Below the pieces are notes generated by a model. The model was not told the origin of the DNA. It saw only the letters and a program-made list of their open reading frames with translations, and made no database searches. Source: Promethearchaeota archaeon (GTDB taxonomy: Archaea; Asgardarchaeota; Lokiarchaeia; Sigyniarchaeales; SOKP01). From it: 64,000 nucleotides of DNA. Position numbers and translations under genes: made by a program. Shown here in pieces: positions 22,241 through 43,706 of the stretch. Location: NCBI GenBank assembly GCA_016839705.1, contig JAEOTR010000044.1:1-64000 (forward strand), given 5' to 3'. Position 1 is the stretch's first letter, and each line of letters opens with the position of its first letter.

Positions 22241-22957
22241 CTATTTTTTTTTTTTAACTTTTTTCTTCATCAAGAGGTTATTCAGTTCCTCGATTTTTTG
22301 ATCTTTTATTTTGTTTTGTATCCCCAATACATCAAGTTTTCTTATTAATTTTTCATTTTCATTTTTTAGTATTTCTAATTCATTATTTTTAGAATCGATG
22401 ATTTTTGTTTGTTCATCTATTTGGGCTTGTAGAGAATATGCCATCCTTCGTTCTATAGCCTCTTCCTTTTTTTTTAATTTAGTATCAAATTCAGAAACAT
22501 CTATCGATTCTTTTTTTAATTGGTCTATTAACAACTTGTATTTATTTACTTTATCCTGTAACTCATTCACAAGGACTTCTAATGGGGGTTTAGATCTTAA
22601 ATTTTCGATTCTAATAACTGATGAATCAGGATTGTTTGCTCTTTCATTTTCTAACTGTTGTTGCAATTGAGTTTTTTCCTTTCTTAAAAAACCCATTCTG
22701 TCTTTTAAATCTCTAATTTCCTCATCTTTTTCCCTAAGTTTGAGAGTCATTTTAGACTCAGCTGCTTGTCCCTTTTTCCCTTTTTTTTTATCATCTGGAA
22801 CAATTTGCTCTAATTGTATGACCTGAGCTTCAAGTTGTTCAAGTTTGTAGAGATATTCGATGATTTCATTGTCTTTTTTATCCAATTCTGTTTCTAAACT
22901 TTCAATTCGTTTTCTTAATGTATCTATTTCAATATTCATGTCATTATTTGTATCCAA
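22241..22957 (-). CDS. Coiled-coil protein of unknown function
   Basis: Heptad-rich E/K/L/I composition throughout, poly-Lys tail. Confidence 0.75.
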   Translation of the reverse strand: MDTNNDMNIEIDTLRKRIESLETELDKKDNEIIEYLYKLEQLEAQVIQLEQIVPDDKKKGKKGQAAESKMTLKLREKDEEIRDLKDRMGFLRKEKTQLQQQLENERANNPDSSVIRIENLRSKPPLEVLVNELQDKVNKYKLLIDQLKKESIDVSEFDTKLKKKEEAIERRMAYSLQAQIDEQTKIIDSKNNELEILKNENEKLIRKLDVLGIQNKIKDQKIEELNNLLMKKKVKKKK

Positions 22958-23111: not shown

Positions 23112-25175
23112 TTAAGCAACAGATTCTAAGAACCTGTAAGCGATATATAAAAACAATTCATTTACATTTTCTCCTGTTTTAGCAGAGGTGAGAATATAAT
23201 GAAAGCCAAGGAGATTGGCAATCCTTTTTATTTCTTCTTCACTGATACATATTTTATCCTCTAAATCAGACTTATTTGCAACAATTATAACATTCAATTC
23301 CTCCCCTATATACCTAGATATTTCATCATACCACTTTTGTATAGATTTAAGACTACCAGGTCTGGTCCGATCTACAACAATAAAAGCAGCATTAGATCCT
23401 CCATAAAATCTTTTTCGAAAAGGGGTCATTTGTGTTATTTGTCCTCCAATATCCCAAATCGCAAAATTTATCTTTGTATTTTTTGCTAAATCAATGGTTT
23501 TTTTTGAGATCTTTACTCCAACGGTACTATGATATGTGTCTTTGAAGAGGTTCTCTACAAATCTAAATATTAAGGAAGTTTTTCCTACTTCATAATCTCC
23601 TATTAATATTAATTTTAAAGAGTAATCTCCTGTAGGAATCTTTCCATCTTTAGTTTTAGAGAGGATTTTTATTATATCTGGGATTTGAAGAGATACATTT
23701 TCATTACCTGCAAGCAGCATTTCAATTTTACCGGCTATATGTTCAGAATATACTCTTAATTCAGTATCAGTGCTTGAAAGATCCGAAATAGTTAGCAATA
23801 TTGATTTTAAACCCATTGAACAATATGCAAACTTTTTATTGCCAATTGTAGTAATATTAAAAAAACTGGTTTGTTCTACGAATTCTTTTTTAATTCTATC
23901 TATATAACTATCAACAGATGCAGCTATCGCTCCTACCACGTTTTCATCTTCCGTATCTCCTTTTTTCTCTGAAGTGATAATTAATCCCTCTCGGTCACAG
24001 ATTGTAATTGCTATAACACCTTCAATTTCATTCATAAAATTCTTTAGTATCATTTTTAAACGAGTTTCTAAGAATGAGAGATTTTTACTTGAAGATTCCT
24101 GAGTAACACCCCTTATTTTAGCAGTGGATTGAAGATCAAGTGATTCGATTTCTCTTATACCTTCTTTTAACTTTAATTGCATTTTATAGAACGGTTCTAC
24201 ATTATCTCCAAGCTTTAAAGAAAGATTAATAATTTCATCAAATAGAGTTTCTAAATGTTCATAGTTCTCGTCCTTCATATTCTTTTCTAATTCTTCAATC
24301 AATCTTTTTTTTTCAAAAAACATATTGATCATGGGTGAAATATCATTCTTCATTTCTAGAATTTCTGATATCATTAGAACCAATTTCTCTCGGTTTTGAG
24401 GGTCTGTAGCAATAATCGAATAGGAATTTAAACCTAAAACTTCTTTGATTTTTGATATATCAACTGTATTCTCTAAATCTTGTTTATTTCCTATTCCTGC
24501 AGTATAAGCATAAGGAACCTCTTCTTCAATTTTGCTCAAGAAGGATTTAGAGTTCTCTATATTTTTTTGAGTAGAATCCGTGATTAAAAGAATAACATCA
24601 CTTCCTCTAATAAAATTATTCCACAAAAAGCCTATTTTTTCATCACCAACAAAATTACGTAGAAGAAAGTATATTCTTCCGACTTTTAGAGTACCCTCCT
24701 CGCCCGATATGATCGGTTGACTTTCTATTGAGATCTCTTTTGACCTTAGAAGATTGAAAATCGTGTTTTTACCTACTCCGGAATATCCTATTAACGTTAT
24801 TATTGGGGGCATTCTATTCTGAACTAAGTAAATTAAATGATCGATTTTCTCAAGATGTTTTTCATCAGCGAAATCAAAAGAATTGGGCTTAATAAGATTA
24901 AAAAACTCTCTTTTAAAACGCCTTATCTCCTTTTCAATCTTATTAAGAGAATCCTGTATTGTGTTTATGAATAAAAAAAGGTAATTACTTTCAAATATAT
25001 ACGATACTCTAAATTTATAATAATCTTTATACTTAAAATCCTTTATTTCCCTTGAAATCGTATCTTCTATCATTGGATTTATCAAATTCTGGAAGGGTTC
25101 CTCTTCTAAAGACAACCCGAATTGCTTTGTGTAAATTAGGGTCCTGTTTTGGTAAATAGATATTTTACGTAAAAT
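23112..25175 (-). CDS. Multidomain protein: longin - degenerate small GTPase - helical linker - roadblock - Rab-like GTPase; probable ATT start
   Basis: GYSGVGKNT/NFVG/NKQD (first G domain); EGVIAITICDREGLII (roadblock); GDYEVGKTS, WDIGGQ, NKSD, TSAK (second). Frame extends 20 codons upstream of track start (ILRKISIYQNRTLIYTKQFG) to ATT after GGTG. Confidence 0.85.
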   Translation of the reverse strand: MLRKISIYQNRTLIYTKQFGLSLEEEPFQNLINPMIEDTISREIKDFKYKDYYKFRVSYIFESNYLFLFINTIQDSLNKIEKEIRRFKREFFNLIKPNSFDFADEKHLEKIDHLIYLVQNRMPPIITLIGYSGVGKNTIFNLLRSKEISIESQPIISGEEGTLKVGRIYFLLRNFVGDEKIGFLWNNFIRGSDVILLITDSTQKNIENSKSFLSKIEEEVPYAYTAGIGNKQDLENTVDISKIKEVLGLNSYSIIATDPQNREKLVLMISEILEMKNDISPMINMFFEKKRLIEELEKNMKDENYEHLETLFDEIINLSLKLGDNVEPFYKMQLKLKEGIREIESLDLQSTAKIRGVTQESSSKNLSFLETRLKMILKNFMNEIEGVIAITICDREGLIITSEKKGDTEDENVVGAIAASVDSYIDRIKKEFVEQTSFFNITTIGNKKFAYCSMGLKSILLTISDLSSTDTELRVYSEHIAGKIEMLLAGNENVSLQIPDIIKILSKTKDGKIPTGDYSLKLILIGDYEVGKTSLIFRFVENLFKDTYHSTVGVKISKKTIDLAKNTKINFAIWDIGGQITQMTPFRKRFYGGSNAAFIVVDRTRPGSLKSIQKWYDEISRYIGEELNVIIVANKSDLEDKICISEEEIKRIANLLGFHYILTSAKTGENVNELFLYIAYRFLESVA

Positions 25176-25410
25176 AATTAAACACCAAAGAATCTCGATA
25201 TTAAAATGTTATAATAAATATTGTTCTTATATTAATCATATTGGATTTCTTTATTTATTTTTTCCGTAAGATACAGTTGAAACTTTCAATAAAAAAGAAT
25301 TTTTTATTAACTAGAAGGTGATCCTCTAAATATATATACATGTAATATCTATGTTTTTATTAAATTTAATTTATTAAAATTTAGCTTTTTAGAAAAGAGT
25401 TTAGTTTAGA

Positions 25411-28400
25411 ATGAAATTTTATAGAAAAACTTTAAAACGTAAACTGAAGTTATCTAGTATCCTATTATTTCTTCTAATTGTTCCAATTATCCTGAATGCA
25501 TCGCTATTTAATATATTTCATTTTAAAGAATTTAATGAAGAAGAAAACAGTTTTGATATCAAAGAAACCCCAAGATTAAATGCACCACCTAATGCAGATC
25601 ATTTTACTTCTTACAAAACAATTACAATAGATCATAATAAAGTTGCAGGATCAAGCACCTATCCTAATTTTCCTGTTTTTATTTCAATTACTGATCCTGA
25701 TTTAAAAACTGATGTTCAACCAGATGGGGATGATATTGCATTCTCTGTAGAAAATACTTGGGTAGATCATGAAATAGAGTTATTTGATCAAGCATTTAAT
25801 CCCACACATGCTCGATTGATGGCCTGGGTGCGAATTCCTAGTTTATCGGGTATTACTGATACAGTAATCAGAATGTATTATGGGAACTCTACCACAAGTT
25901 CGAGGCAAAACCCCGATGGAGTGTGGGAAAATAACTATAGAGGTGTCTGGCATTTAAATGAACAAATTGGTGGGTCAGATGCCATAATTGATTCAACCGC
26001 ATATTCAAATGACGGAACAGATATTAACAGTCCTAATCTAGGGCAGAATGGTCAGATTTATAACTCCATTGGTTTCACTGATGCTTCTGGTCAGAGAATC
26101 CAAGCTTCTGATGATTCAAGTTTAGATATATCCAACCAATTAACTGTGGAAGCATGGATAAATCCAACCGTTGTTTTTGAATGGTCAACTATCGTAAGTA
26201 AAATGGATGGAGCGTGGGGTAGTGGAGATGTATCCAATTTTGATATCTATGTTGCAATCAGCGATCTTGGAAATTTTTATATCGGACTGTCTAATCCTTC
26301 AGATATATGGGATGAATGGTATTCACCTGTCTCGGTTTCCACCGGTACATGGCAACATTTTGTCTTTACTTATCAAAGTTCGACATCAATGGGAAGAATT
26401 TTTGTAAACGGCGCTTTCATGAGTGAACACGATTTTGGTATCGGGACATTAGGTACAAATGGAAATCCCCTTTATATTGGCTTTAATAGAGGGTGGACAG
26501 GAGAAGTTTTTGATGGTTTAATTGATGAAGTTCGAATTTCCAGTATACCTCGTTCATCTGGATGGATAAATACAGAATACGTCAACCAAAATGATCCGGA
26601 TACATTTTATACAGTTGGAGCGGAACAAGTTGTATCTTCTGATCCTCCCAATGCTCATTACTTTACTTATTATAAAACAATCACTATTGATCAAACTCAG
26701 GTTGTTGGCTCAGGAAGTCATGTTAATTTTCCAGTTTTAATATCTTTTGTTGATAATGATTTGAAATATCACGCTCAACCTGATGGTGATGATATTGCTT
26801 TTTCTATCAGTGGAGATTGGTTGAATCATGAAATTGAGCTATTTGATCAATCTTATAGCAGCACACAAGCTCAACTAGTAGCCTGGGTACAGATTCCTTA
26901 TCTCTCTACTAGTAAAAATACAACATTTACAATGTATTATGGTAATTCAACTATGACCTCTCAAGAAAACCCTAGTGGTGTATGGAATTCTAATTATGTT
27001 GGTGTATGGCATTTAAATGAAAATCCTGGAGGAACTGTTTATGATAGTACTTCTTATAATAATGATGGTACTACTCTCGGATCAATGGATACTTCCGATT
27101 TAGTGTTATGTAAAGTTGGTAAAGGATATGAATTAGATGGTGTTAATGATATAATTAGTGTTTCTGATAGTACAAGTTTAGATACGGTAAATGATGAAGG
27201 GACATTATCTTTATGGTTAAATTGGGTTGATCCTTCAGCAGGAAGATATCAAAGAGTTATGACTACAAGCAATCGTTTTGAATTAAATCCCACTCCCCCT
27301 CCTACATACCTCCAAACTGATGGTTTTGAATGGGCGGTACAACCCGATGGTGATCATTTTTTCTACCCTTATGGGGGAAATAGTATCAATTATAACCTCG
27401 CCACGAATCCTTTTACAAATAATTATTGGCATTATGTAGTGGTAACACTTAAGTTTTCTACTAAAACCGTTAAAATTTACTTAGATGGGACTTCTTTGAG
27501 TTTTTCAATAGAAAATGTACCCTCACAGTGGTTAGTACTAGCTAATCTTGAAGATTGGCTGTGGGGTGGAGATACTGTTACCACCGGAAGTCAATTTGAA
27601 GGTAAATTTGATGAGATCCGTGTTTCCAACGTTGAACGTTCTGCTAATTGGATAACAACAGAATATAATAACCAATTTGACCCGAGTTTATTTTATACGG
27701 TGGGGAGTGAACAGCTTGTGTCTGAACAACCTTCTGATGTGGAAAATTTCAACTACTACAAAATAATTACTATTGACCATACAAAAGTGAATGGAACAGG
27801 TAGTCATCTAAATTTTCCTCTTCTTATCTCTATCCTCGATTCAGACTTGAAATACGACGTTCAAAATGATGGTGATGATATTGCCTTTTCAATGGATGGT
27901 AAATGGCTTGATCATCAAATAGAGCAATTTAATCAAAGTTATAGTGGTACTCATGCTCGATTAATCACATGGGTTCGTGTACCATTTTTATCAACTGCAT
28001 TTGAATCCCAAATTAGGATGTATTATGGCAATTCAACTATCAATTCACGGCAAAATCCCATGGGAGTATGGCTTTCTGATTATGCTGGAGTATGGCATTT
28101 AAATGAGGATCCATCCGGTGTTCCCCTCCAGATTAAAGATAGCGCTCTTCCTGCCAGTGATGGTGCAACTTACGGCAGTATGACTTCTTCAGATCAAGTT
28201 CCCGGAATTATTGGGGGTGCATTAGATTTCGATGGAGTTAATGATTATGTAGATTTTGGGAATCCTGGGGAAATGCAAATTACAGGTGAGATTACTGTCC
28301 AAGCTTGGCTTAAAGTCGATTATATTGGAAATGATTATTTAATAGTAAAATCGGGAGAACCTGGTTTTAGAGGGTGGGATATCAGTTTTGACGATGATCC

Positions 28401-31400
28401 CGGTATTGCTCCTGATGGATGGATTATGTTCCGTTATTCTCCAGACGGATCTAATACTGTTATTACTGGTTATGAACGAGTAAAAATAAATCAATGGTAC
28501 CACGTAGTAGGTGTTTTTAAACCAAATGAATATTCAAAATTATTCTTAAATGGGACCCAGGTCGCTATAAGAACGGCAGGAGTTTCACCTTCAATGAATG
28601 ATCCTTCCTTACCTCTTCGTATTGCCAGGCGATCGGATGCATCAACATCATATGTGAATGGAATTGTAGATGAAGTTCGTGTATCTACGATTGCACGTTC
28701 TAATGATTGGATTGTTTCTGAGTATTCAAATCAATATGATCCTTCTACTTTTTATTCTGTCGGTCCAGAACAATCCATAAAAATACTACCTTTTGTAGAT
28801 GCTCAAATTAACGCTATTGACTTATATAATAACTTATTGCCTAATGTAACTATTTCGGTATATCAGTTTACTCAATTAATGGATCGTAGCATTACTGATA
28901 TTAATGGTTCTGTTTTATTTTCTAATCTTATTGAAGGAGAATACAACTTTACGGCATCAATATATTCAGATATCGCAAATGTGACCGAAATAGTAAATGT
29001 TACATTGGGAGCAATTTCTCTTAATCAATCATTTCAAACGGTTGATTTAATTTGTAATGTAACCTCCCACTTCTTCGAACTACTAGATACCGATGCGAGT
29101 CCTTTAGAGTCAGGATGGATTATGGTTGGAAATGATACGCATATACTCAAGCAATGTATTATAGATCCAACTGGACACACAACGTTTTGGTGGGTAGATG
29201 CTCCTCCATCCGAATATAACTATACTGTCTACTATAGCAACGCGTTTTATAATCCTTCAACTCTTACGCTTGCTTCAGGAGATATAACAACGGAAAATGA
29301 TACTATATATATTCAAATCGGATTAACCACTGTAGATTTTCTAGTGCAAACCATTACTCAACCAATTACTCCTGTAAGTGGTGCTAAGCTTATATTGACT
29401 GTCGGTGATCCATTAGGTGCAAGTATTGCTAATTTAACCACCGATATAAATGGACAAACGACATTAAGATGGTTGAATTCATCAGGGATCGGTGGAGACT
29501 ATTGTGTTCAGATTGAATTCTTCGGAGTGAATAGATTATTTAACGATACAATAGGTCCTGCTTCGGTATATAATTACAGTTTTACAGTGAACAATAGAGA
29601 TTCTATTGAGTTTAGAATGTCAATTGATCTTAACAAATTTCAAACAGAATTAATTTCCTTAAATCCTTCTGATTATATTGAAATTGAATGGGGAACAGTT
29701 TTGAAATTAAGAACATTGTTTAATGTGAGTAAAGTAGAAGCGGGTTATGAATCATTATTAGGACCAGAATATGCCGATATAATGACATTTGAAATGTTAT
29801 ATGGAGGTATTTCTTTATTCTCAGGTGTATTTGAAAAAGAAGTTGGAAATGAAGGAAGACATTACGTGAGTATAGATACTCATGATATGGATAGTGATAC
29901 GAGTTATATTATTATTATTTCAGCTCAAAAGTCTGGATATTCTATTCCCTCAAGCCTAATCCTTCAATTAGATGTTTTAGAAATTGATGTAGAATTAAAT
30001 CAATCCGATAACGATAATTCCGCAACATCAGTATATTGGTCAGATATCGCTGATATGACGTTAAAATCTTACGGTGTAAATTCTGAGACTCTTACCATAG
30101 AAAATGCCCTTTTCCAAGATGTTGATCATAATTTTAGTTTCCTTATTTCTGATGTTACCAATAATTGGAACCTCTCTACCATCATCTTTAACATCTATGG
30201 TATTTCATGGAATACGGATATAATTAATATAAATGTCACCATTGAGGATCCTTATAGTGTCTCTCATGTATATAACTCTTCCAATCATTTAGGATGGGAT
30301 TATAACCGAAGTTTATGGACGGGAATTACATTAGATTTAAATAAAGCTAGTCAAACCAATGATAATAATTTTGAATTTAAAATAAGTGGTACTTTTGACG
30401 GAACTGTCGATGTTGTTGTAGATGCATATTGCATAAGAGATTCACTTAGCGTTCGATATTCAAAGTTTAACGTAAGTGATTCTATTTCACTTGAGAGCAA
30501 ATCAGAAGGGTGGGCAATAAAAGATATCATCTTTGAAGTATCTAATTGTTATTATACCTCTAATTGGAGTACTGTAGACCTATCAAGTCTTACAAACTTA
30601 AATTTTACTACAAACGAAGGATTCTCCTATTCTTTAGACACAGGATATTCTAACGGAACGGGTGTTTTAACTATTGATGATAGATTTATATATCCAATAT
30701 TAAATCAATTCTTATTTACTATTGATAGCGAGTTTGATATACTCTTCAATGCAATCATTAAAGTTGGATATGTTCAAGGATTTTATTTGAATCAAATTTT
30801 TGAAACATTTAACTTCACCTCAGCGAAACAAGGAATAGCAAATGGAGGGATTTTCCAATTGAGTGCCAACGAGAATAGTTGGACTGAACAAGAAGCGGAT
30901 CTTTGGATTACAGGAATCAAAACTGGATTAACATATGTCTATCCTTCAGATGTAGGTATGAGTATTACTATCGGAGGTCAATCCTATAGTATATATGATT
31001 ATTCATTAGGAGTTGGAAAGATTTCAATAACAGGATTAACAAAAAATCAACTCTACCAAGCAGACATAGATTATTCAAGCGCGGCAAATTTTAGTCTTTT
31101 ACTTTCAATAGAAAACACTAGAGATATATCATATGAAATAGTAAGTTCATTATCATATGTAATAGTGGAAGAACCTTCTATATTCGGAACGGTTCAGTAT
31201 AATCAACAGTTGCAATACTATCTAAAAATCCTTGATACTTTTCTACTTGATGCTGATGAATATACTGTAAGATTCTCTATAACGAAAGAACACTATATAA
31301 CGACAACAAAAGACCTTAACCTACTCGTTTTAAATCGTCCAACGTTGTTGAATGGTTCTACAGAATTTTTCAGAAAAATTGAATTTATTTATGTTAAAGA

Positions 31401-33432: not shown

Positions 33433-33574
33433 ATGACAATTTTTTTTATGTTTTTTTACATTTAGCAATACTAGAATTTCAAACTTTAAATATAAATATA
33501 CGAATTTACTATTATTTTGTAAATACAATTTTATGTTTTGTATAATCTTATTTTATACATGAATTTGATCAAAA

Positions 33575-36500
33575 ATGAAGTCTAGGTATTATATTTCAAA
33601 AATTACTACAAAAAAAATTACGGCACTTATCTTTTTATTGTTCACATTAATAATCCCGATAATAATTAACTCACAGTTATTTTCAATTTCTCATGAGGGT
33701 GAGAAAGAAGATACAGATTTAACACCGAAATTAAATGCCCCTATTGATGCTCATCATTTTACTCAATTTAAAACTATAACCATTGATCATACTCAAGTTT
33801 CAGGAACAAGTGGGCTTATGAACTTTCCTTTTCTCATCTCGCTTTATGATGAGGATTTACGTGTCGATGTGCAATCTGATGGGGATGATATTGCTTTTTC
33901 TTCAAATAACCTTTGGTTAGACCATGAAATTGAGGTGTTTGAACAAACCTATAATGGAACACATGCTAAATTGGTTGTTTGGGTCAGGATTCCTGCCTTA
34001 TCAGTATCTAGTGATACAAATATTAGAATGTATTATGGTAATGCCACAATGAGTTCACGAGAAAATCCACAGGGAGTATGGGATAGCAATTATTATGCTG
34101 TATATCATATGAATCAAGACCCAAGCTCATCTTCTATTCTGGATAGTACTTCTAATAGTTATGATTTAACACCGGGTGCAGGTTTTACTTCTGGAGATCT
34201 TGTAGAGGGAACGATTGGCAAAGCTATACAATTCGGTGGAGTAAATACAGAATATTTAGAACTAACCTCTGGTTTTTCTAATCCAACAAGCGCGCTATCT
34301 CTTGAAATGTGGTTTAGGCCTCAATTATATGATACATATCAACGTTATTTCACAGCAAGATGGAGTTATCCCGATCTTCGGTTACAGACTTCCAATTTCA
34401 TTACCACTCGAATTCGGAATAATCTTGGAAATGTAAGTTCTACTGAAGGTCTCTTCAATGGTTGGACAGATCAATTTTATCATTTTGTTATGACCTGGCA
34501 AGGTGGAACAGTTGGGCATCAAAAGCATTATATTAACGGAACACTAAATAGAGATGATTATGATGCCGAAGCTTTAGGGACTTCCTCTTCTTGGACAGGC
34601 TTTAATCTCGGTTCAGATACAGACCACACTGATCCCATCGGTGGGATGATTGATGAATTTAGAATAACTTCCAATGTTCGTTCTTTAGATTGGTTTGAAA
34701 CGGAATTTAATAACCAATACAATCCGAATGCTTTTTATACTATTGGAGCGGAGCAAGAAGTCGTTTGGGATCCTCCGAATTCCCAATATTTCGCATATTA
34801 TAAACTTATTACAATCGATCATAATGAAGTAAGTGGTATTGGTGTCCATTATAATTTTCCAGTTTTAGTTTCTTTTATTGATAATGATTTGAAATATCAT
34901 GCTCAACCCGATGGTGATGATATTGCTTTTTCTATCAGTGGAGATTGGTTGGATCATGAAATTGAGCTATTTGATCAATCTTATAGTAGCACACAAGCTC
35001 AATTAGTAGCCTGGGTACAGATTCCTTATCTCTCTACAAGTGAAAATACAACAATCACAATGTATTATGGTAATTCAACTATGAGTTCACAACAAAATCC
35101 AACCGGAGTCTGGGGCAGTAATTATATAGCTGTATGGCATATGAATCAAGATCCGTCATCCTCTAACATTTTAGATAGTACTTCAAATAATTATGATTTA
35201 ACAACGAGTGGATTTTCTAGTGATACACGCTTTAATGATGGAAAGGTGGGAACAGCAATTTCCGTTGATGGAATTAACGATAGATTTGGAATAGCTAGTA
35301 TTAACGGCCCGGTAAATGACTTAACATTTCAATCATGGTTTACACCTGATAATACTATAGCCTCGGGAAGCCCACAGATGGATCTTTTTGGGGGCAATAG
35401 TCTTTCGAGTAATCATCCTACAATGAGATTTACTACCAGTGGAACAGTTAATGTTTTTTTAGAGGTAACTTCAGATTCTAGTGAAGGTTCTTATGGTGTT
35501 AAAAATTCATGGGCTGCTGGTTCATGGTTTCATTTTACTTATGGAAGGTCTATGAGTTTGTCAAGAGCATATCATTACATAGATGGAATACAAGATGTGC
35601 TTGATACTGGTTCTGATAATGGTTATCCACACTTACCTTGGGATCAATTTTCAATATTAGCCAGTATCGATGGGTCAAGAATTTGGGGTCCAGGAGCAAT
35701 CTCAGAGTTTAGAATTCTAAAAACTGCTCTTTCGGGTGATTGGATATTAACAGAATACAATAATCAATATGATCCAAACTCTTTCTATACTATCGGGAGT
35801 GAGCAGCTTGTGTCTGAACAACCTTCGGATGTGGGAAATTTCGCCTATTACAAAATAATTACGATTGATCACACTCAAGTCAATGGAATGGGTAGTCATG
35901 TAAATTTTCCATTTTTGGTTTCACTTCTTGATACAGATTTACGTTTTGATGTACAAACTGATGGTGATGATATTGCTTTTTCTACGGAAGGTCAATGGTT
36001 AGATCATCAAATAGAATTATTTGATCAACCCTACAATGATACTCATGCTCAATTAATTGCATGGGTCCGTATCCCTTTTCTATCTACAGTAGAGGATACG
36101 GAAATTACTATGCACTATGGAAATTCCACTATGAATTCACGCCAAAATCCTACAGGTGTTTGGCCAGATTACAAAGCGGTTTGGCATTTTAATGAACCTA
36201 CTGGAACGGGAGATTATATAAAAGATTCAACTGAAAATGATTATGATGGAACTCCATTCGGTACACAATTTTTAGATTCAGGACAAATCGATGGATCAAG
36301 ATCTTTCTCAGGTGCTGGTGATGATAGGGTTGTTATAAATCAGGGATCTGAGTTTTTCAACGGAGATAATTCGTTTACCTTTTCTTTTTGGATATATCCA
36401 AACTACCAATCAGATGCAGAATGGGAATCAATGACAGATCGTTATGTGTTTTCTAAAACATCATCCGTTAGGATGGCACGTCTTTGGCGTCAGAGCTTTC

Positions 36501-39500
36501 TTGGCCCCGGGGAAGGAAGATTTCAAGCAGATATTCAATTTGCGACATATGGTACTACCTATAGTAATGTGGCAGTTTATCGGCAAGAGTGGACTTATGT
36601 TACATATTCCTATGATGGAAATTACCTAAGGGCATATAGAAACGACCAATTAGTAATTTCAACGAATATTGGAGGATTTCCTTTAATTACAGATTCAAGT
36701 ACATTCTATTTCGGTAGGTTTAATAGCTTTAAAGGATATTTAGACGAATTTCATGTATTGAATACTTACCGATCTGATGGATGGGTTGCCACGGAGTATT
36801 ATAACCAATTTAATCCTACTACATTTTTCGATATCAGTGAAGAACATTATTCTAAACCAATTGTAGAAGTTGATGTTCTAATTAATGCTGTTGATTTATA
36901 TGTTAATTTATTGCCCAATGTAACAATTTCTATGTATCAATATACAGATTTAATTGAAACAGATATTACGAGTATTGATGGGACAGTTAGTTTTACTGAT
37001 ATCACTGCAGGAGAGTATAATTTTACAGCATCAATCTATTCAGAAATCGCAAATGTAACTGAAATAGTAAACATCACATTAAACGCAATCCAACTTAATC
37101 AATCCTTTCAGACGATTGATTTAATCTGCAATGTAACTAGCCATTTCTTCGAAGTAGTAGATATCGATGGTAGTCCTCTAGAGTCAGGATGGATTATGGT
37201 TGGAAATGATACACAAATTTTCAAACAATGTAACATAGATCCAACGGGACATACAACGTTTTGGTGGGTAGATACACCGCCTTCCCAATATAACTATACC
37301 GTTTATTATAGTAATGCTTTTTATAATCCCTCGATTCTCATGCTTGCTTCAGGGGATATTACAACGGAAAATGATTCAATTAATATTCAAGTAGAATTAA
37401 CAACTGTAGATATTTTAGTGCAAACCATTGACGCACCAATTACCCCTGTTAGTGGAGCCAAGATCAAATTAACCGTTGATGATCCACTAGGTGCAAGCAT
37501 TGTTAATTTAACCACTGATATAAATGGACAAGCGACCATAAGATGGTTAAATTCATCAGGGATAGGCGGAGATTACTGCGTTCAAATTGAATTTTTTGGA
37601 GTGAATAGGTTGTTTAATCAAACTGCTGGAGGACCTGCTGCTGTGTATAATTTCACTTTTACGGTGATTAATAAACAATCTCGTGAGTTTAGAATGGCGA
37701 TTGATCTGAACAAATTTCAAACTGAAATAATCTCGTTAAATCCTACTGATTATATTGAAATTGAATGGGGTTCAATAATAAAGCTTAGGACATTATTCAA
37801 CGTTAGTAAAGTGGAAAGTGGTTATGAGTCTCTTTTAGGATCAACTTATGCAGATTTAATGACATATAATATGTTATTGGCTGGTGAAATAGTTCAGTCA
37901 GGAACGTTTTTAGAGGAAGATGGAAATGTAGGTAGATATTCTGTAAATATAGACACAAAGCAAATGGATAGTGATGAGAATTATCTCTTAATTATCTCAG
38001 CTTATAAATCTGGATTCACGATTCCTTCAGATCTAATACTACAATTAAATATCCTGAAAAATAACTTAGAGTTGAGTCAATCCAACAAAGATGATTCCGC
38101 GTTAACAAGCTATTGGTTAGAGAGTGTTAACATGACATTAAAATCTTATGGTGTAAATTCTGAGACTCTTACGATAGAAAATGCCCTTTTTCAAAGTGTT
38201 GATCATGAATTTAACTTCCTAGTTTCTGATGTTAAAAATAATTGGAACCTTTCTAAAATCGTCTTTAATATTTATGATATCTCATGGAATACAAATATTA
38301 CTAATATTAATATTACAATTGAAGATCCTTATGGATCTTTTGCTTATACTTTTGATAACAATTCTGGTGGTTGGGATTACACTCAAGGTACATGGACAGG
38401 AATTACTTTAGATTTAAATAAAGCAAGTCAAACTAATGATAATAATTTTGAATTTAGAATAAGTGGTACTTTTGACGGAACTGTAGATATTGTTGTGGAT
38501 GCATATTGTATAAGAGATTCACTTAATGTAAAATATTCAAAATTCAATGTTAGTAGTGAAATCCCTATTTTATCAGAAACAGAAGGATGGGCAATAAAAA
38601 ATATCACATTCGAGCTATCTGATTGTTATTATACCTCTAATTGGAGTACTGTAGATCTAAATCTCATAAACTTAAATTTTACCACAAACGAGGGTTTCAT
38701 ATATTCACTAGATGCGGGATATCCTAATGGATCTGGCATTTTAAATATTGATGATAGATTCATTTATCCAATATCAAATCAATTCTTATTTACTATTGAT
38801 ACGGAGTTTGATGTAATCTTCAATACAATCATTACAATTGAATATGTTCAAGAATTTTATGTAAACCAGATTTTTGAAACATTTAATCTCAGTAAAACAA
38901 GTCAAGGAATTGCAAATGGAGGGATTTTCAAATTGAGTGCCAATGAGAATAGTTGGAATGAACAAGAATCGAACCTTTGGATTACAGGAATCAAAAGTGG
39001 ATCAACGTATTTCTATCCTTCAGATATATCAATGACTATTACCATCGGAGGGCAAACCTATAATATTTTAGATTATTCTCAAGGAACTGGAAGATTCTCT
39101 TTAGTGGGATTTACGAAAAATCAAATCCACCAAGCAACTATTGATACCTCTACCCCAGTAGATTTTAGCCTATCGTTATCAATTGAATATCAAAGAGAAT
39201 TGTCATATGAAATTATAAATTCATTATCATATATTATTATAGAAAAACCTTCCATAACCGGGACAGTTCAATATGATGCTCAGTTAGAATATTACCTAAA
39301 AACCATTGATACTTCACCACTTGATGCTGATGAATATACTGTAAGATTCTCTATAATGAAAGAAAATTATATTTCAACTACAAAAGATTTAGAATTATAC
39401 GTGCTTAATCGTCCAACACTACTTAATGGCTCTTCAGAATTTTTCAGAAAAATTGAAAACATTTATGTTAAAGATGCTGTAAATTTTACCTTGGAATATA

Positions 39501-41512
39501 CTGATGTGTTAAGTGGGAACAAAATAACAAATTTAAGAGCTCAATATTATATTTGGGAAAGTTATGATCAAAACGGTAATGTAATTGATAGTGATCAAGG
39601 AGATATCATTTCTACATTAGACAACACTTACATCTTGGATTTTAACACAGAAACAAGGTCAGTTGGAGAATATTTATTAGTAATCACAATTGATAAAGAT
39701 AATTATGACTGGAAGAATGGTATGATTCTTCTTACTGTTAATAAGCGAATACTAAACTACTCTTTAGGACTTAATTTTAAAGATTTTAAATCTAGTGTTG
39801 TTAAAGGGAAACCTGTTACAATAAACGTTTCCTTGACTGATCCTACACAGGGGGGAATCTCGTTAGTTAATGCAACTGTTAAATTGACAATTAGTGGTAA
39901 TACTTATGAGTTTGAACCGTATTCAGTGAATGAAACCGGAGTTTATACATTTGAACTACCAACAGATAATATTAATACTTTCTTCAGTTCTAAAACTCTA
40001 ACCGGAATTATAAATATCACAAGAGAGGATTATATTTCTGAAGAATTTACAATTATTATTGTGGTTGAAATGGAGCAGATCTTTTTTGGGATACCTACGT
40101 TTTATTTCATTTTGGGCTTATCTGTCATAATTGCCTTAGTTGGTAGTATTGTGGGATATAGAATTTATCAGAACGCAATAATTCCTACGTTTGTAAAAAG
40201 AGTAAGAGAAATGAAAAAGGCAATACAAAAGAGTAAAATCATATCAGAATCAATTTTATATCCTAACAAAAATGCTTTCGTTGCAGAAAGAGTAAATCAC
40301 AAGTGGGAAAAACTTGGCTTATCATTAGGGGAAATTATCGATACTGGGGGATATCGAATCAAAAAAATATCAAAAAAAGAAAAAAGAATAGCTGAAACGG
40401 TAAAAGAACACGAATTAAAACCTATAGGATTAGTAATAATGAAATGGGATGAAAGAATCGGAACAGAAATATTAGCTAAATATCCTGAAGAAACTTTTAT
40501 TTCAGAAAAGACTTTAATGCAGATATATAGCACACATGAGTATAGTGGAGATAAAGGTATAATAGTCCTTTCTGCTGGTACTTTGAATATTATTTCCTAT
40601 TATTCTGGACCAGAGATAAGTTATTATCTTCTTTTGATCTTAGATTTAGACGATGATCCAGACCTTTATGAAGGAGGAATGGCAGATACATTAAGAATTC
40701 TTATGGAAAACATTGAAGATGATTCCTATAAACAGCTAATGCCTTCTCTTTTCCGACGTTTATCCCTCATTCCATCTCTTAGTGACGAAGAACTACTTAC
40801 TCATAGTTATCAAGATGAAATAAAACGTATGCTCATAGATAATTTAAGAGATATTGGTTTGGTAACAAAATCAGAACTAACTGTGTGGCTTAGAGATAAG
40901 TTCCTTGAAGTATTCATCGATTTAGATGCGACGCTTTCTGAAATGTTAAAGAAAGAATTCATAAAACAAGTATCTGTGAAGGGTTTACCATCAGAATTAA
41001 TAGTTTTAATAAATGATATATTTATGCTTAGAATACCCCCAGTAGACTTATATGAAGATCCCGTGAATCGAGGTTTACCATTACAATTCAGGAAGGAATA
41101 TTTAGCAGAAGTTAAACAATTTTTCCAAAGTTATCATCCAACGAATGCAGATAATTTACAGATTATGAAGATTTTCAATAATCCTGATGTGTATCACATT
41201 CTAAGATTATTGAGAACTACAATTGTGACAAGACAAGAACTTGAAAAATTACGAAAGAAAGGCGTGGGAGACATCTATGCGGCGTTAAAACTGTTGTTTG
41301 ATGCTAGAATGATAAAAATTTTCCAAGATGAAAATAATAATGAGTATTATGCCCTTCTCTCTGATTTTTATATAGATTTAATTTTTCCAAAGTATCTCTT
41401 AGGGATAATTAAAGCAATTTATGAACAGAAATCTATAGCAAATAGAGCATTGATTGAATATCTCCAAATTCTTGAAGATACGTACTATAACTTAAAATCA
41501 AAGAAAAAATAA
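33575..41512 (+). CDS. Giant type-I membrane protein B, tandem paralog of A
   Basis: Same architecture; TM 40094-40159; KPIGLVIMKWDERIGTEI; stalk and cytoplasmic parts clearly similar to A. Confidence 0.85.
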   Translation: MKSRYYISKITTKKITALIFLLFTLIIPIIINSQLFSISHEGEKEDTDLTPKLNAPIDAHHFTQFKTITIDHTQVSGTSGLMNFPFLISLYDEDLRVDVQSDGDDIAFSSNNLWLDHEIEVFEQTYNGTHAKLVVWVRIPALSVSSDTNIRMYYGNATMSSRENPQGVWDSNYYAVYHMNQDPSSSSILDSTSNSYDLTPGAGFTSGDLVEGTIGKAIQFGGVNTEYLELTSGFSNPTSALSLEMWFRPQLYDTYQRYFTARWSYPDLRLQTSNFITTRIRNNLGNVSSTEGLFNGWTDQFYHFVMTWQGGTVGHQKHYINGTLNRDDYDAEALGTSSSWTGFNLGSDTDHTDPIGGMIDEFRITSNVRSLDWFETEFNNQYNPNAFYTIGAEQEVVWDPPNSQYFAYYKLITIDHNEVSGIGVHYNFPVLVSFIDNDLKYHAQPDGDDIAFSISGDWLDHEIELFDQSYSSTQAQLVAWVQIPYLSTSENTTITMYYGNSTMSSQQNPTGVWGSNYIAVWHMNQDPSSSNILDSTSNNYDLTTSGFSSDTRFNDGKVGTAISVDGINDRFGIASINGPVNDLTFQSWFTPDNTIASGSPQMDLFGGNSLSSNHPTMRFTTSGTVNVFLEVTSDSSEGSYGVKNSWAAGSWFHFTYGRSMSLSRAYHYIDGIQDVLDTGSDNGYPHLPWDQFSILASIDGSRIWGPGAISEFRILKTALSGDWILTEYNNQYDPNSFYTIGSEQLVSEQPSDVGNFAYYKIITIDHTQVNGMGSHVNFPFLVSLLDTDLRFDVQTDGDDIAFSTEGQWLDHQIELFDQPYNDTHAQLIAWVRIPFLSTVEDTEITMHYGNSTMNSRQNPTGVWPDYKAVWHFNEPTGTGDYIKDSTENDYDGTPFGTQFLDSGQIDGSRSFSGAGDDRVVINQGSEFFNGDNSFTFSFWIYPNYQSDAEWESMTDRYVFSKTSSVRMARLWRQSFLGPGEGRFQADIQFATYGTTYSNVAVYRQEWTYVTYSYDGNYLRAYRNDQLVISTNIGGFPLITDSSTFYFGRFNSFKGYLDEFHVLNTYRSDGWVATEYYNQFNPTTFFDISEEHYSKPIVEVDVLINAVDLYVNLLPNVTISMYQYTDLIETDITSIDGTVSFTDITAGEYNFTASIYSEIANVTEIVNITLNAIQLNQSFQTIDLICNVTSHFFEVVDIDGSPLESGWIMVGNDTQIFKQCNIDPTGHTTFWWVDTPPSQYNYTVYYSNAFYNPSILMLASGDITTENDSINIQVELTTVDILVQTIDAPITPVSGAKIKLTVDDPLGASIVNLTTDINGQATIRWLNSSGIGGDYCVQIEFFGVNRLFNQTAGGPAAVYNFTFTVINKQSREFRMAIDLNKFQTEIISLNPTDYIEIEWGSIIKLRTLFNVSKVESGYESLLGSTYADLMTYNMLLAGEIVQSGTFLEEDGNVGRYSVNIDTKQMDSDENYLLIISAYKSGFTIPSDLILQLNILKNNLELSQSNKDDSALTSYWLESVNMTLKSYGVNSETLTIENALFQSVDHEFNFLVSDVKNNWNLSKIVFNIYDISWNTNITNINITIEDPYGSFAYTFDNNSGGWDYTQGTWTGITLDLNKASQTNDNNFEFRISGTFDGTVDIVVDAYCIRDSLNVKYSKFNVSSEIPILSETEGWAIKNITFELSDCYYTSNWSTVDLNLINLNFTTNEGFIYSLDAGYPNGSGILNIDDRFIYPISNQFLFTIDTEFDVIFNTIITIEYVQEFYVNQIFETFNLSKTSQGIANGGIFKLSANENSWNEQESNLWITGIKSGSTYFYPSDISMTITIGGQTYNILDYSQGTGRFSLVGFTKNQIHQATIDTSTPVDFSLSLSIEYQRELSYEIINSLSYIIIEKPSITGTVQYDAQLEYYLKTIDTSPLDADEYTVRFSIMKENYISTTKDLELYVLNRPTLLNGSSEFFRKIENIYVKDAVNFTLEYTDVLSGNKITNLRAQYYIWESYDQNGNVIDSDQGDIISTLDNTYILDFNTETRSVGEYLLVITIDKDNYDWKNGMILLTVNKRILNYSLGLNFKDFKSSVVKGKPVTINVSLTDPTQGGISLVNATVKLTISGNTYEFEPYSVNETGVYTFELPTDNINTFFSSKTLTGIINITREDYISEEFTIIIVVEMEQIFFGIPTFYFILGLSVIIALVGSIVGYRIYQNAIIPTFVKRVREMKKAIQKSKIISESILYPNKNAFVAERVNHKWEKLGLSLGEIIDTGGYRIKKISKKEKRIAETVKEHELKPIGLVIMKWDERIGTEILAKYPEETFISEKTLMQIYSTHEYSGDKGIIVLSAGTLNIISYYSGPEISYYLLLILDLDDDPDLYEGGMADTLRILMENIEDDSYKQLMPSLFRRLSLIPSLSDEELLTHSYQDEIKRMLIDNLRDIGLVTKSELTVWLRDKFLEVFIDLDATLSEMLKKEFIKQVSVKGLPSELIVLINDIFMLRIPPVDLYEDPVNRGLPLQFRKEYLAEVKQFFQSYHPTNADNLQIMKIFNNPDVYHILRLLRTTIVTRQELEKLRKKGVGDIYAALKLLFDARMIKIFQDENNNEYYALLSDFYIDLIFPKYLLGIIKAIYEQKSIANRALIEYLQILEDTYYNLKSKKK
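34859..35084 (+). repeat. Near-identical DUF2341-coding segment, copy 2
   Basis: Matches 26731-26956 with only scattered substitutions. Confidence 0.85.
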
Positions 41513-41551
41513 AATAGATCTCAATTTTTTTCCTTTTTTTATATTATTTTT

Positions 41552-41627
41552 AATCCATACCTGAGCAAGGGTTTCATCAAATAACTTTCTACGAGAGGCT
41601 TTTTTATTTGAGTCATTACTATGGATT
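41552..41627 (-). promoter_or_regulatory. Eukaryote-like SECIS element in 3' UTR
   Basis: Minus strand: helix I AAUCCAUA/UAUGGAUU; core AUGAC...UGAA; helix II UCAAAUAA/UUAUUUGA; apical AAAA run; starts 4 nt after the TAA of the UGA-containing ORF. Confidence 0.8.
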
Positions 41628-41631
41628 TTTT

Positions 41632-42552
41632 TTAGTCACAATCTTCTGCTTGTTGTTTATTAATTTTGATAAATGCTTCCTCTTGAAGATTTCGTTGTTT
41701 TGATTTGATAGTTCGATTTACTTGACTTAAATGTTTCATGGCATTATTTTTTCCGTTTTTAATATTTTCAATCAATTCTTCTTTACTAAATCCTCCAGAA
41801 ATGACAATTGCTGTTTGAAATGATTGGTTAGGTTCCAATGTCTTAAATTCTATTTGTAAAGCAGATAAAACTTCTCCTGGGTCTTTATATAATGTATTAG
41901 AAAGGTTTAAATTATTCTGATTGATTATGAAATCTCTTGTTAAACATGTCTGGTAATTAGTTGATTTAGAGATAGGAGAAAATCCACCGTGCAAGCCAGT
42001 GTTATCATATTGATAAATTATATCATTTTCTTCGTCATATCCAGATAGATCATTATCAAAACCATCAAGTCCATTTATATCAAAATCAAAGACAAAATAC
42101 ATCGAAAAATCTTTCATTGCAAAATCTGAAATATTTTTCATAGTAAAGAAAGTACTAATATAGGGTACTTGTGGGGGATTAAATATGTCTTTGTAAACAC
42201 GAACAAACTCCTTCTTTTGTAATGGAACAGATTTTATGATATTTTCCCGTACTAATTTCTTAAGATACTCCGTTATATTGAAATCCAAGGTAATTCTGCT
42301 TATTGCAGTCCCCTTACGAGTATTTACCATATTATATATTGGCGTGGGTTCGATGTTTTTTAATATTACCGGGATTGTCCCGATTCCTTTTCCTTCTAGT
42401 TTAAAACTGAACCATGGACCAGTTAATTCTTGTTCACTAAGATAAATGAGATATTTTCCCTTATATGTAAGTTCTTTTATTGAAAATCCCATGACATATC
42501 CAGCAGCGTTTCAAGTTGTGAGCACATCGTGCCAATCTACCTTAATTACTAT
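41632..42552 (-). CDS. Candidate selenoprotein of unknown family (~306 aa, Sec at codon 14)
   Basis: Frame continues upstream of track Met through a single TGA (42511-42513): (M)VIKVDWHDVLTT-U-NAAGYVMGFSIKEL; AAGGAGGT SD 9 nt before ATA at 42552; SECIS downstream; exact start uncertain. Confidence 0.75.
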
Positions 42553-42719
42553 CTTATTTTAACCTCCTTCAATTAACTATAATTCTCCAATTTTTTAATG
42601 ATTAGTATATCACTACTTTAAGAGAAGGGGAATTTATAAAAAATACTGTATAAATATCAAGAGTAAAATTTAAGTAAATTTTTGAGTATATTCAAGAACA
42701 AATGGAAAATTTATATATA

Positions 42720-43706
42720 TTAGTATAATGCCTCAATAACTCTATAAGCTACATAAAAAAATGCGTCGTTTACATTTTCTCCCGTTTTCGCGCTTGTTAA
42801 AATGTAATGAAAACCATAACTCTTGGCAACTTCCTTTATGTCATCTTTACTTATCACTATTTGATCTCCTAAGTCTGATTTATTTCCCACTATAATAATA
42901 GGGATATTTTTGGGAATAGATGCTTTTAAATCTTTATACCATTTTTCAACACTATCAAGATTTTCTTGACGAGTTCTATCAATCACAATAAAAGCAGCAT
43001 TAGCACCATTATAAAATCTTGCTCTATAGGGTGCCATCTGAAAACTCTGACCTCCAATGTCCCAAATTATGAAGTTCATTTTATTATGATCAGTTAAGTT
43101 AATCGTTTTTTTTGAGATCTGTACACCTATAGTAGAAATATAATCTTCTTTAAAGGTGTTTTCCACAAATCTTCTAATTAGAGATGTCTTACCTACTAAG
43201 AAGTCACCTGTTAATATTACTTTATTTGAATATTCCCCGGCTAATTTAGGAAGCGCTCCCGCTCTTGTCTTCGCTAAAGCTTTTATAATTTCAGGAATTT
43301 CAGTAGATACTTCCTCATTTCCATCTAAAATTAATTCTATTTTGCCAGCTATATGTTCTGAATATACTTTTAATTCGATATCACTTGTTAATTGATCTGT
43401 TACTGTTGTCAAAATTGATTGAGGACCTTGTGAACAAAACGCAAACTTATTTTCTTCTGTTGAGGTTATATTAAAGAAATTACCCTGAGATCCAAATTCA
43501 CTTTTAATTCTCTCAATATAATTATCAAGAATAGCTGAGATCGCACCAAGCACGGAATCCGATTCTTCTTCCTCACCTTCTTTGAACTCAGAAGCGATAA
43601 TAAAACCATCCCTATCACAGATCGCAACACCCAATATACCCTCTACTTCTTCAAAGTAGTTTTTCAAGATCTCTTTTAAGAGTTTACTACTTGGAAGTTT
43701 TTCCAT
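42720..43706 (-). CDS. Roadblock + Rab-like small GTPase fusion
   Basis: EGILGVAICDRDGFII; GDFLVGKTS, YISTIG, WDIGGQ, NKSD, TSAKTG; paralogous to C-terminal half of 23112-25175. Confidence 0.9.
   Translation of the reverse strand: MEKLPSSKLLKEILKNYFEEVEGILGVAICDRDGFIIASEFKEGEEEESDSVLGAISAILDNYIERIKSEFGSQGNFFNITSTEENKFAFCSQGPQSILTTVTDQLTSDIELKVYSEHIAGKIELILDGNEEVSTEIPEIIKALAKTRAGALPKLAGEYSNKVILTGDFLVGKTSLIRRFVENTFKEDYISTIGVQISKKTINLTDHNKMNFIIWDIGGQSFQMAPYRARFYNGANAAFIVIDRTRQENLDSVEKWYKDLKASIPKNIPIIIVGNKSDLGDQIVISKDDIKEVAKSYGFHYILTSAKTGENVNDAFFYVAYRVIEALY

Follow-up and report, generated by a model that had tools for sequence, protein, structure and literature searches.

Giant surface proteins with predicted longin and winged-helix tails beside roadblock-Rab-like GTPases in a Lokiarchaeial genome

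In eukaryotes, NPRL2 and NPRL3 (Npr2 and Npr3 in yeast) are the longin subunits of GATOR1/SEACIT, a GTPase-activating protein (GAP) for RagA/Gtr1. Asgard genomes are rich in eukaryote-like small GTPases and in longin and roadblock proteins, and Asgard cells are mostly without internal membranes; to our knowledge, almost nothing is known about the targets of these small GTPases, longin and roadblock proteins. Here we analyse a gene cluster in a 64,000-nucleotide stretch of a Promethearchaeota archaeon genome (contig JAEOTR010000044.1 of assembly GCA_016839705.1, class Lokiarchaeia), the whole of which we refer to as the window. Two tandem genes of the cluster encode giant surface proteins whose cytoplasmic tails are predicted to consist of a longin domain plus two winged-helix domains, a combination that we label LWW. 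The remaining genes are those of a left and a right GTPase with predicted roadblock and Rab-like domains (P0003 and P0005, respectively) and of a further protein, P4.

NPRL2 and NPRL3 consist of a longin domain and two or more domains of the winged helix-turn-helix (HTH) type (Levine et al., PMC3747258). LWW resembles them in having an N-terminal longin domain followed by tandem winged helices within ~360-400 residues, and in occurring as paired paralogues beside a pair of roadblock-bearing GTPases. Unlike NPRL2/3, LWW has no match to the Pfam family NPR2 and no conserved longin arginine, its Gly-Pro (GP) motif is reduced to the glycine, and its winged-helix half does not specifically pick out the C-terminal domain of NPRL2. 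A DEPDC5-like partner of LWW was not seen, its neighbours are Arf-like and Rab-like GTPases with an N-terminal roadblock rather than Rag proteins, and in the window it is covalently joined to a giant surface protein.

LWW can also be likened to C9orf72-SMCR8 (CSW) and FLCN-FNIP, longin heterodimers that serve as GTPase platforms (for Arf, Rab or Rag). The GP motif is a hallmark of longins of the GAP type (FLCN, NPRL2, SMCR8, C9orf72) and is seen in some Asgard longins, and in C9orf72 both W33-D34 and G38-P39 are essential (PMC12290439). The WD-x3-G motif of LWW, which runs from strand 1 into the loop before strand 2, has the spacing found in C9orf72. In contrast to both heterodimers, in which DENN modules follow the longin domain, LWW continues with winged helices; the proline of the GP motif is found in only 12% of LWW members, and no arginine finger is conserved. 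DENND1A/B, which act on Rab as guanine nucleotide exchange factors (GEFs), have a uDENN domain that shares the longin fold with the tail (Z ~11), but the cDENN and dDENN parts that make a GEF are absent from the tail. On the GTPase side, a roadblock domain paired with a Ras-superfamily GTPase, probably dimerising through the roadblock sheet, recalls MglA/MglB and Rag-Ragulator; unlike in those systems, the roadblock is here fused N-terminally to the Rab-like domain and tied to a transmembrane (TM) protein.

Among Asgard archaea, structures of Rab, roadblock and longin proteins have been solved (Tran et al.). The accessible portion of Liu et al. (10.1101/2020.10.19.343400) describes asCOG families with an 'NPRL2-like longin domain', including free proteins with a longin and a small C-terminal domain and fusions to signalling (two-component) domains, and a separate Asgard DENN/LAMTOR1-like/Rab operon. 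As described in that portion, those families share organisms and longin type with LWW; the same portion makes no mention of giant LamG proteins, of an equivalence between split and fused forms, or of a cluster of Arf-like, roadblock-Rab and P4 genes. The literature that we searched contained no description of a giant-LWW fusion, of split/fused equivalence or of this cluster.

The cytoplasmic tail of the giant surface proteins

The initial annotation of the window had proposed two tandem proteins of ~2,650 residues, each with a receptor-like topology of ectodomain, stalk, one TM helix and a cytoplasmic domain of ~365 residues. Open reading frames (ORFs) for both were found on the forward strand, at 25411-33432 (giant 1, 2673 residues) and 33575-41512 (giant 2, 2645 residues), and the proteins are 56% identical across their full length. 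By Pfam and hydropathy, each giant has three DUF2341 and three Laminin_G_3 stretches, an N-terminal signal or hydrophobic anchor, and a single additional TM helix, which spans residues 2196-2224 of giant 1 (31996-32082, forward strand; hydropathy peak 2.35) and 2168-2197 of giant 2 (40076-40165). The ectodomain of each giant carries 40 N-glycosylation sequons (residues 40-2195 in giant 1), against 0-1 in the cytoplasmic part, and in giant 1 the TM helix is followed by a basic juxtamembrane linker of 84 residues (32083-32334, forward strand; isoelectric point (pI) 9.84). The sequon distribution and the basic linker fit a topology with the N-terminus outside and the C-terminus inside, so that the receptor-like arrangement holds by sequons, linker charge and hydropathy. 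The cytoplasmic domain opens with GLILMKWDERIGTE at residue 2312 of giant 1 and residue 2285 of giant 2.

Searches of Pfam and PDB with the tail sequence alone identified no family; the sole match, to Alphavirus E3 (E 0.1-0.26), is a chance one. We therefore turn to an AlphaFold2 model of the tail built from an alignment of 57 family members, which reached a predicted local distance difference test score (pLDDT) of 95.5 and a predicted template-modelling score (pTM) of 0.89. In this model the tail begins with a longin domain (32335-32694 in giant 1, forward strand) of the order beta-beta-alpha-beta-beta-beta-alpha-alpha, with strands at residues 4-11, 15-22, 47-53, 56-62 and 69-75 and helices at 30-43, 81-97 and 104-120, and with a WD-x3-G...YP motif. 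Two winged-helix-like units follow (~123-206 and 243-322), each built as helix-helix-strand-helix-helix-hairpin, and two C-terminal helices complete the tail. The corresponding tail of giant 2, longin and two winged helices, spans 40418-41509.

Structural comparison placed the tail among longin proteins. With the full model as query, the top Foldseek matches were GATOR1 NPRL2/3 chains (E 2e-4 to 9e-4, probability 0.82-0.99). VIA-align of the full model aligned the longin domain only; for this part NPRL2 chains were nominally first (Z 12.0-12.1, root-mean-square deviation (rmsd) 2.6-2.8, 118-119 residues aligned), with VAMP7 (Z 11.2-11.6), the uDENN domains of DENND1A/B (Z 11.0 and 10.9) and a Lokiarchaeota longin (8yqg, Z 10.6-10.7) close behind, and with Ykt6, synbindin, Lst4 and FNIP2 likewise within about one Z of NPRL2. 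More than 40 longin chains matched at Z 9-12. Since NPRL2, VAMP7, Ykt6 and uDENN lie within ~1 Z of each other, the longin fold is certain and its subtype is not.

The remainder of the tail gave winged-helix matches. Modelled alone, the C-terminal 248 residues reached a pLDDT of 91.2, with ESCRT-II as the best Foldseek match (E 8e-3). Winged helix 1 (32701-32952 in giant 1, forward strand) aligned with the cullin WHB domain 8caf_E (Z 8.3, rmsd 2.1, 75 residues aligned) and the APC2 WHB domain (Z 7.5, rmsd 1.5), and residues 133-222 matched a Mnd1 winged-helix profile (E 0.012). For winged helix 2 (33061-33300, forward strand), the family profile matched ArsR/TrmB-type winged helices in PDB, with PH1932 (E 1.5e-4) aligned at residues 248-317, as well as HlyU (E 0.0095), and structural similarity to the ArsR/SmtB family reached Z 8.0-8.5. 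The modelled tail, a longin domain with two winged helices behind it, thus has the architecture of NPRL2 and NPRL3. The Pfam models NPR2 and NPR3 did not match the tail, nor are they among the families commonest in the 57 members.

This fold bears directly on the function that the initial annotation had assigned to the tail. The start of the tail had been read as a uDENN/longin signature and its length as that of a full DENN-like module, so that uDENN, cDENN and dDENN together would act as a GEF for the flanking Rab-like GTPases. A comparison with DENN and longin folds, which had been proposed as a check, bore out the longin half of the claim and not the DENN half. The first 120 residues do have a longin/uDENN fold, with DENND1A/B tied with other longins in the structural alignment and with DENND10 and DENND1 among the Foldseek matches, and some Asgard lineages do possess DENN proteins (Liu et al., 10.1101/2020.10.19.343400). 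However, residues 121-365 are modelled as two winged helices rather than as the alpha/beta core of cDENN and the helical dDENN, and alignments to DENN proteins span only ~110-180 columns. No match to the DENN, uDENN or dDENN Pfam families was found for the tail at E up to 10, or among the 25 families commonest in the 57 members; individual members match HTH families, never DENN families, and a search of the whole genome with PF02141 (DENN) at E up to 10 was equally negative. A complete DENN module is thus already contradicted by the predicted fold, and we consider this model barely credible. Nor is a GEF role of the tail indicated; the nearest architecture, that of NPRL2/3, sits in a GAP complex.

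The ArsR-like matches raise a different possibility, that the tail is a membrane-tethered transcription regulator whose winged helix binds DNA, perhaps after proteolytic release, with the GTPase neighbours being incidental. Winged helix 2 matches ArsR/SmtB/TrmB-type HTH profiles at E 1.5e-4 to 0.01, as such a regulator would, but the tail is acidic (pI 5.1), as is winged helix 2 itself (pI 4.8), which argues against DNA binding. Tandem winged helices bind proteins in ESCRT-II and, placed after a longin domain, in NPRL2/3, and what the LWW family is consistently linked with are GTPases and giant membrane proteins rather than regulons. We regard a regulator of this kind as very improbable.

Conserved positions in the longin domain speak to what the tail might do to a GTPase. 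Across the 57 members, conservation is concentrated in the strand 1-loop-strand 2 region, at W10 (91%), D11 (79%), G15 (93%) and P23 (98%), the motif string that the initial annotation had picked out. The spacing from W to G is that of C9orf72 W33-D34...G38-P39 (PMC12290439), and a proline follows G15 in 7 members. No arginine of the longin domain, including the strand 4-5 loop, is conserved at a cut-off of 60%, a comparison for which the arginine-finger position of NPRL2 was not mapped on the structure. The only positions with arginine in at least 60% of members, R205 and R266, are both in the winged helices, and R13 is arginine in 51%. With no conserved longin arginine and only a rare proline after the glycine, a GAP of the GATOR1 arginine-finger type is not indicated.

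GTPase partners and the LWW family

From left to right, the cluster consists of the left GTPase (reverse strand), giants 1 and 2 (forward), P4 (reverse) and the right GTPase (reverse). The left gene, P0003 (23112-25175), encodes 667-687 residues with longin-like, degenerate Arf-like, coiled-coil, roadblock and Rab-like regions; the right gene, P0005 (42720-43706), encodes 328 residues with a roadblock (~43257-43679) and a Rab-like domain (42723-43235; Ras E 4.8e-39). Pfam and alignment bear out the statement of the initial annotation that paralogous roadblock-Rab-like genes stand on either side of the giants, the shared unit being 58% identical between P0003 and P0005. The left gene indeed adjoins the giants. 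On the right, the P4 ORF (41632-42492) lies between giant 2 and P0005, which is therefore not a direct flank of the pair. The divergent gap of ~235 bp between P0003 and giant 1 is correct if P0003 starts at the ATT codon at 25175 (687 residues); from the first canonical codon, TTG at 25115, the gap is 295 bp. We consider the ATT start likely, as the family N-terminus MLRQ[IV]YI is recognisable here as I-L-R-K-I-S-I-Y (ATT-TTA-CGT-AAA at 25175), a GGTG lies 8-11 nt upstream, and the start position is an isoleucine codon in 7/10 orthologues and ATG in only one.

The Rab-like domains have intact GTPase motifs. That of P0003 (23115-23624, reverse strand; Ras E 7.5e-44) has canonical G1-G5 motifs (GDYEVGKTS, WDIGGQ, NKSD, SAK), and all G motifs (GxxxxGKT, DIGGQ, NKSD, SAK) are kept in both flanking domains, whose best PDB match is a Thorarchaeota Rab (7ezb, E 1.7e-31), followed by Rab1 and Rab8. 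Gtr1_RagA scored 26.8 bits against 134 bits for Ras, and the roadblock is N-terminal to the G domain, not C-terminal as in Rag proteins. Neither P0003 nor P0005 has a C-terminal prenylation cysteine (they end in ...RVIEALY and ...FLESVA). The roadblock/LC7-like domain of P0003 (23706-24059, reverse strand), which lies within the 58% identical region, matches MAPKK1_Int and Robl_LC7 weakly; that of P0005 reaches 22.2 bits with Robl_LC7 (E 1.2e-4), below the cut-off of 23, and matches a Thorarchaeota roadblock (7f8m) at E 0.0047.

The Arf-family domain of P0003 (24336-24818, reverse strand) is recognisable (Pfam Arf E 1.1e-11, with 44.9 bits where the cut-off is 22.3; Arf1 in PDB, E 4e-9) and degenerate. 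In a motif table of 36 homologues, free Arf-like proteins have GKTT and WDFAGQE, compared with GKNT and RNFVGDE in P0003. Fused homologues mostly have RDFxG[D/E]E, in which the catalytic glutamine is gone, and this loss is seen in 10 of the 12 fused orthologues that stand beside giants. P0003 also lacks the P-loop threonine, a loss found only in the window, and the Walker-B aspartate, a loss shared with its closest relative. With all three residues lost, the Arf-like domain of P0003 is probably not a working switch. It also lacks the N-terminal amphipathic helix that is a defining feature of the Arf family (10.1101/2024.02.28.582541), the G domain being preceded instead by a longin-like region (24819-25175, reverse strand). 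A profile of 14 homologues of this region matched AP-2 sigma in PDB (E 0.0055), residues 1-99 aligning with 1-97 of AP-2 sigma, and 4/14 matched Clat_adaptor_s; these results hint, weakly, that proteins of this type begin with a longin-like domain of ~105-130 residues related to sigma-adaptin.

In a tree, roadblock-Rab units of the left and of the right type separate into sister clades. Both clades are conserved across metagenome-assembled genomes (MAGs) and stand apart from the other roadblock-GTPase paralogues of this genome. Loci with one giant and loci with two alike keep one left-type and one right-type gene. The retention of one member of each lineage is as expected of an obligate pair.

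We searched for relatives of the tail to assess the generality of its association with giants. An exhaustive HMMER search with the tail returned 308 representative clusters, of which 99 had E below 1e-30; most members are free proteins of ~360-380 residues in which the domain runs from residue 2 on. A scan of GTDB genomes with a closer, 11-member alignment found 253 relatives, nearly all in Asgard MAGs, and 77 loci were examined; the family profile matches 223/301 genomes sampled from the phylum. One split-type locus (DATKTW010000037.1) is in a MAG labelled Candidatus Nanopelagicaceae bacterium, all others being Asgard, and this label is most likely a binning error.

Two arrangements, fused and split, dominate among the 77 loci. 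In the fused type, found at ~20 loci, the left multi-domain GTPase is divergent from one or two giants with LWW tails, which are followed by P4 and the right roadblock-Rab gene, both convergent. In the split type, a protein of 1300-2300 residues homologous to the stalk of the giants is followed by a free LWW gene of 368 residues, the stop and start codons often overlapping. Among relatives with enough upstream DNA, a free LWW gene lies directly 3' of an ORF of at least 500 residues with a C-terminal TM helix in 39/43 cases. Both types are present in this genome, the split type on contig 81, where the stalk proteins end ~85 residues past the TM helix in a tail that, compared by eye, resembles the linker of the fused giants, and where the free LWW gene starts exactly at the point at which the fused tail starts. 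This homology between the C-terminal tail of the split-type stalk proteins and the juxtamembrane linker, with a free LWW directly after it, implies that fused and split forms are equivalent. In the tree of LWW domains, fused forms, apart from one early pair, make up one clade that is sister to the split forms. Since LWW is normally a free cytosolic protein whose gene directly adjoins that of a giant single-pass protein, the fusion in the window hard-wires an existing partnership.

The partnership extends beyond close relatives. In eight other Asgard families, a free LWW is found beside single-pass, sequon-rich proteins of 1468-2391 residues that are unlike the stalk described here, and in these distant families LWW precedes the giant, the reverse of the gene order in close relatives.

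Small GTPases, above all a longin-Arf-like one, also accompany LWW. Of 11 ORFs in this genome that match the LWW profile, 8 lie no more than 2 kb from an ORF for a GTPase or roadblock protein, compared with 17% of other ORFs. In split-type loci, a convergent GTPase of ~345 residues comes after one LWW copy. In other Asgard families, a free LWW directly adjoins a ~280-residue homologue of the Arf-like GTPase at 10/20 loci; in the distant families, the neighbour of LWW is a giant single-pass protein or a longin-Arf-like GTPase, or LWW has both, and the gene order varies. It is in the clade of the window that the longin-Arf-like GTPase is fused to a roadblock-Rab-like GTPase, giving the left gene. 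The tie to small GTPases and the conserved neighbourhood that the initial annotation had proposed are thus upheld by fusions, by adjacency in several orders and by distant Asgard families.

A candidate membrane-anchored platform for GTPases

Taken together, the modelled fold and the sequence comparisons are best explained, in our judgement, by LWW being a membrane-anchored longin platform for these GTPases, and we hold this explanation to be probable, though by no means assured. Several observations weigh against it. The longin match fails to separate NPRL2 from VAMP7, Ykt6 and uDENN, all within one Z; the C-terminal half alone returns generic winged helices and ESCRT-II, with no GATOR1 chain in the top 50; and a search of the whole genome with the Pfam model NPR2 (PF06218), at E up to 10, was negative, so that a relationship to NPRL2 is founded on fold and architecture rather than on membership by sequence. 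The genome has ~90 small GTPase ORFs, so some adjacency is expected by chance, and paralogous loci are not independent of each other. Finally, unrelated flanking genes (hisB, a GH4 hydrolase, methyltransferases) are also collinear in close relatives, which makes the synteny of the fused type alone weak evidence, in part plain collinearity.

The last two points, GTPase abundance and the synteny of housekeeping flanks, are also what would be expected if there were no functional coupling at all and the proximity of GTPases were simply inherited gene order in a GTPase-rich genome. However, adjacency persists in distant Asgard families with differing order and orientation, the enrichment within the genome is 8/11 against 17%, and the fusions of Arf-like, roadblock and Rab-like domains occur exactly in the clade with the LWW-giant fusion. 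We consider an absence of coupling improbable. The case for coupling, which draws on the fusions, the equivalence of split and fused forms, the in-genome enrichment and the distant families, appears well supported at the level of sequence.

A working scheme for the platform can be proposed. LWW tails would pair through their longin sheets, as in NPRL2-NPRL3 or C9orf72-SMCR8, and the two tandem giants may heterodimerise. Once paired, the tails would offer a platform fixed at the membrane, to which the longin-Arf-like part of the left protein would bind. The left and right proteins would associate by way of their roadblock domains, in the manner of Rag GTPases, so that two intact Rab-like switches would be held beneath the surface protein. 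The degenerate Arf-like domain would then be a fixed adaptor and the Rab-like domains probably the working switches. Contact or ligand binding at the LamG tip, or clustering of the giants, could change where or whether the GTPases are active; equally possibly, the GTPases govern where the giants sit. For the tail itself, a role in recruitment or as a platform, perhaps with a GEF-like action, seems to us more likely than that of an arginine-finger GAP, because no arginine finger is conserved and WD-x3-G matches the non-catalytic C9orf72 type.

The direction of control might also run from the inside out. As a cargo-adaptor or positioning system, the tail and the GTPases would then sort the giants, cluster them or anchor them, for example to protrusions, with no relay of signals from the ectodomain. 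Eukaryotes offer a parallel, in that Arf and the sigma- and mu-adaptin longin subunits pick cargo tails. The Arf-like partner described here bears a sigma-adaptin-like longin N-terminus, the giant single-pass proteins encoded with free LWW are many and varied, no enzymatic signalling domain is present in the tail, and complex surface proteins are present on the cell bodies and protrusions of Loki-type cells (PMC9834061). Against this, the sigma-adaptin match is weak (E 0.0055) and no coat or large-adaptin genes are found within the cluster. We judge a purely inside-out system rather unlikely; it is a variant of the platform explanation, not its opposite.

A bolder version of the platform explanation is that a prokaryotic single-pass surface receptor or cargo protein is wired directly to an Arf-like/Rab-like module through a longin platform, fused and split across Asgard archaea, and that this is a surviving relative of the arrangement behind eukaryotic longin-GTPase systems. 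We put this forward tentatively, as a possibility short of an expectation. If it is true, the cluster would be a relative of the origin of NPRL2/3-Rag, of C9orf72/SMCR8-Arf and of sigma-adaptin/Arf cargo selection, and small-GTPase control would have been in place beneath contact-sensing surface proteins, at the plasma membrane, before there were endomembranes. A real coupling would have a bearing on how receptor or cargo recognition became tied to GTPase switches in eukaryogenesis. In the fused form, the gene itself names the partner of the longin module, which makes up the cytoplasmic end of a giant surface glycoprotein with LamG tips. The proposed set of proteins is small and defined (the tail, the longin-Arf-like/roadblock-Rab protein, the roadblock-Rab protein and P4), and it provides a hypothesis for what the complex surface proteins of Loki-type cells connect to. 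In the prokaryotes most closely related to eukaryotes, this would be a testable physical link from cell surface to GTPase switches.

Ectodomains, P4 and neighbouring genes

All genes of the cluster recur in many Asgard MAGs, which indicates that they are real genes; their public database entries are all named 'hypothetical'. In giant 1, the tip of the ectodomain (25588-28770, forward strand) consists of three DUF2341 plus LamG (ConA-like) modules (Laminin_G_3 E 1.1e-54, DUF2341 E 3e-20), seen also as internal repeats with a period of ~1060-1086 nt. The stalk (28771-31995, forward strand) is sequon-rich and beta-rich, with a weak CarboxypepD_reg match, and homologous stalks are found in the split-type proteins. 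We looked for a recent gene-conversion tract between giants 1 and 2 and found none, the best blocks being 83-88% identical. In the tree of LWW domains, copy 1 and copy 2 of the giants fall into separate clades, suggesting that the duplication is old and that both copies have been retained. In another genome of the same taxonomic family, five LWW matches ~8.3 kb apart, in frames of 2655-2678 residues (G210 contig 9, 430352-464784), point to five giants in tandem, each with a longin tail.

Further DUF2341/LamG proteins near GTPase genes occur elsewhere in this genome. On contig 7 (1790-13556), two single-pass proteins of 1384 and 1604 residues with long coiled-coil tails are followed by a 399-residue protein in which a GTPase precedes a roadblock, the Rag-like order, and by a 290-residue protein whose N-terminus matches the LWW longin domain. 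On contig 32 (62566-68838), a single-pass DUF2341/LamG protein of 1562 residues adjoins a 518-residue roadblock-GTPase gene on the opposite strand.

P4 (41632-42492, reverse strand) is a cytosolic protein of 286 residues and a conserved member of the fused-type cluster. It had no match in Pfam or PDB, and in the ESM Atlas it matched only unnamed, Asgard-only clusters. Besides the window, P4 is found at 13 other loci, always between the last giant and the right roadblock-Rab gene, and its mean column identity over the 14 MAG loci (86%) is above the conservation of its neighbours.

DNA methylase genes lie on both sides of the cluster: an N6/N4 DNA methylase on one side (21132-22211, forward strand) and, on the other, an Eco57I/MmeI-type restriction-modification methylase with a TaqI-like specificity domain (46129-48048, reverse strand). 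Both are present in related loci too and therefore belong to the shared gene order. Downstream of P0003, a possible accessory gene (22241-22957, reverse strand) encodes a coiled-coil protein of 238 residues with a lysine-rich C-terminus and only weak matches to coiled-coil Pfam families. A homologue adjoins the P0003-type gene in 8 related loci, a conserved position that general collinearity among close relatives could explain.

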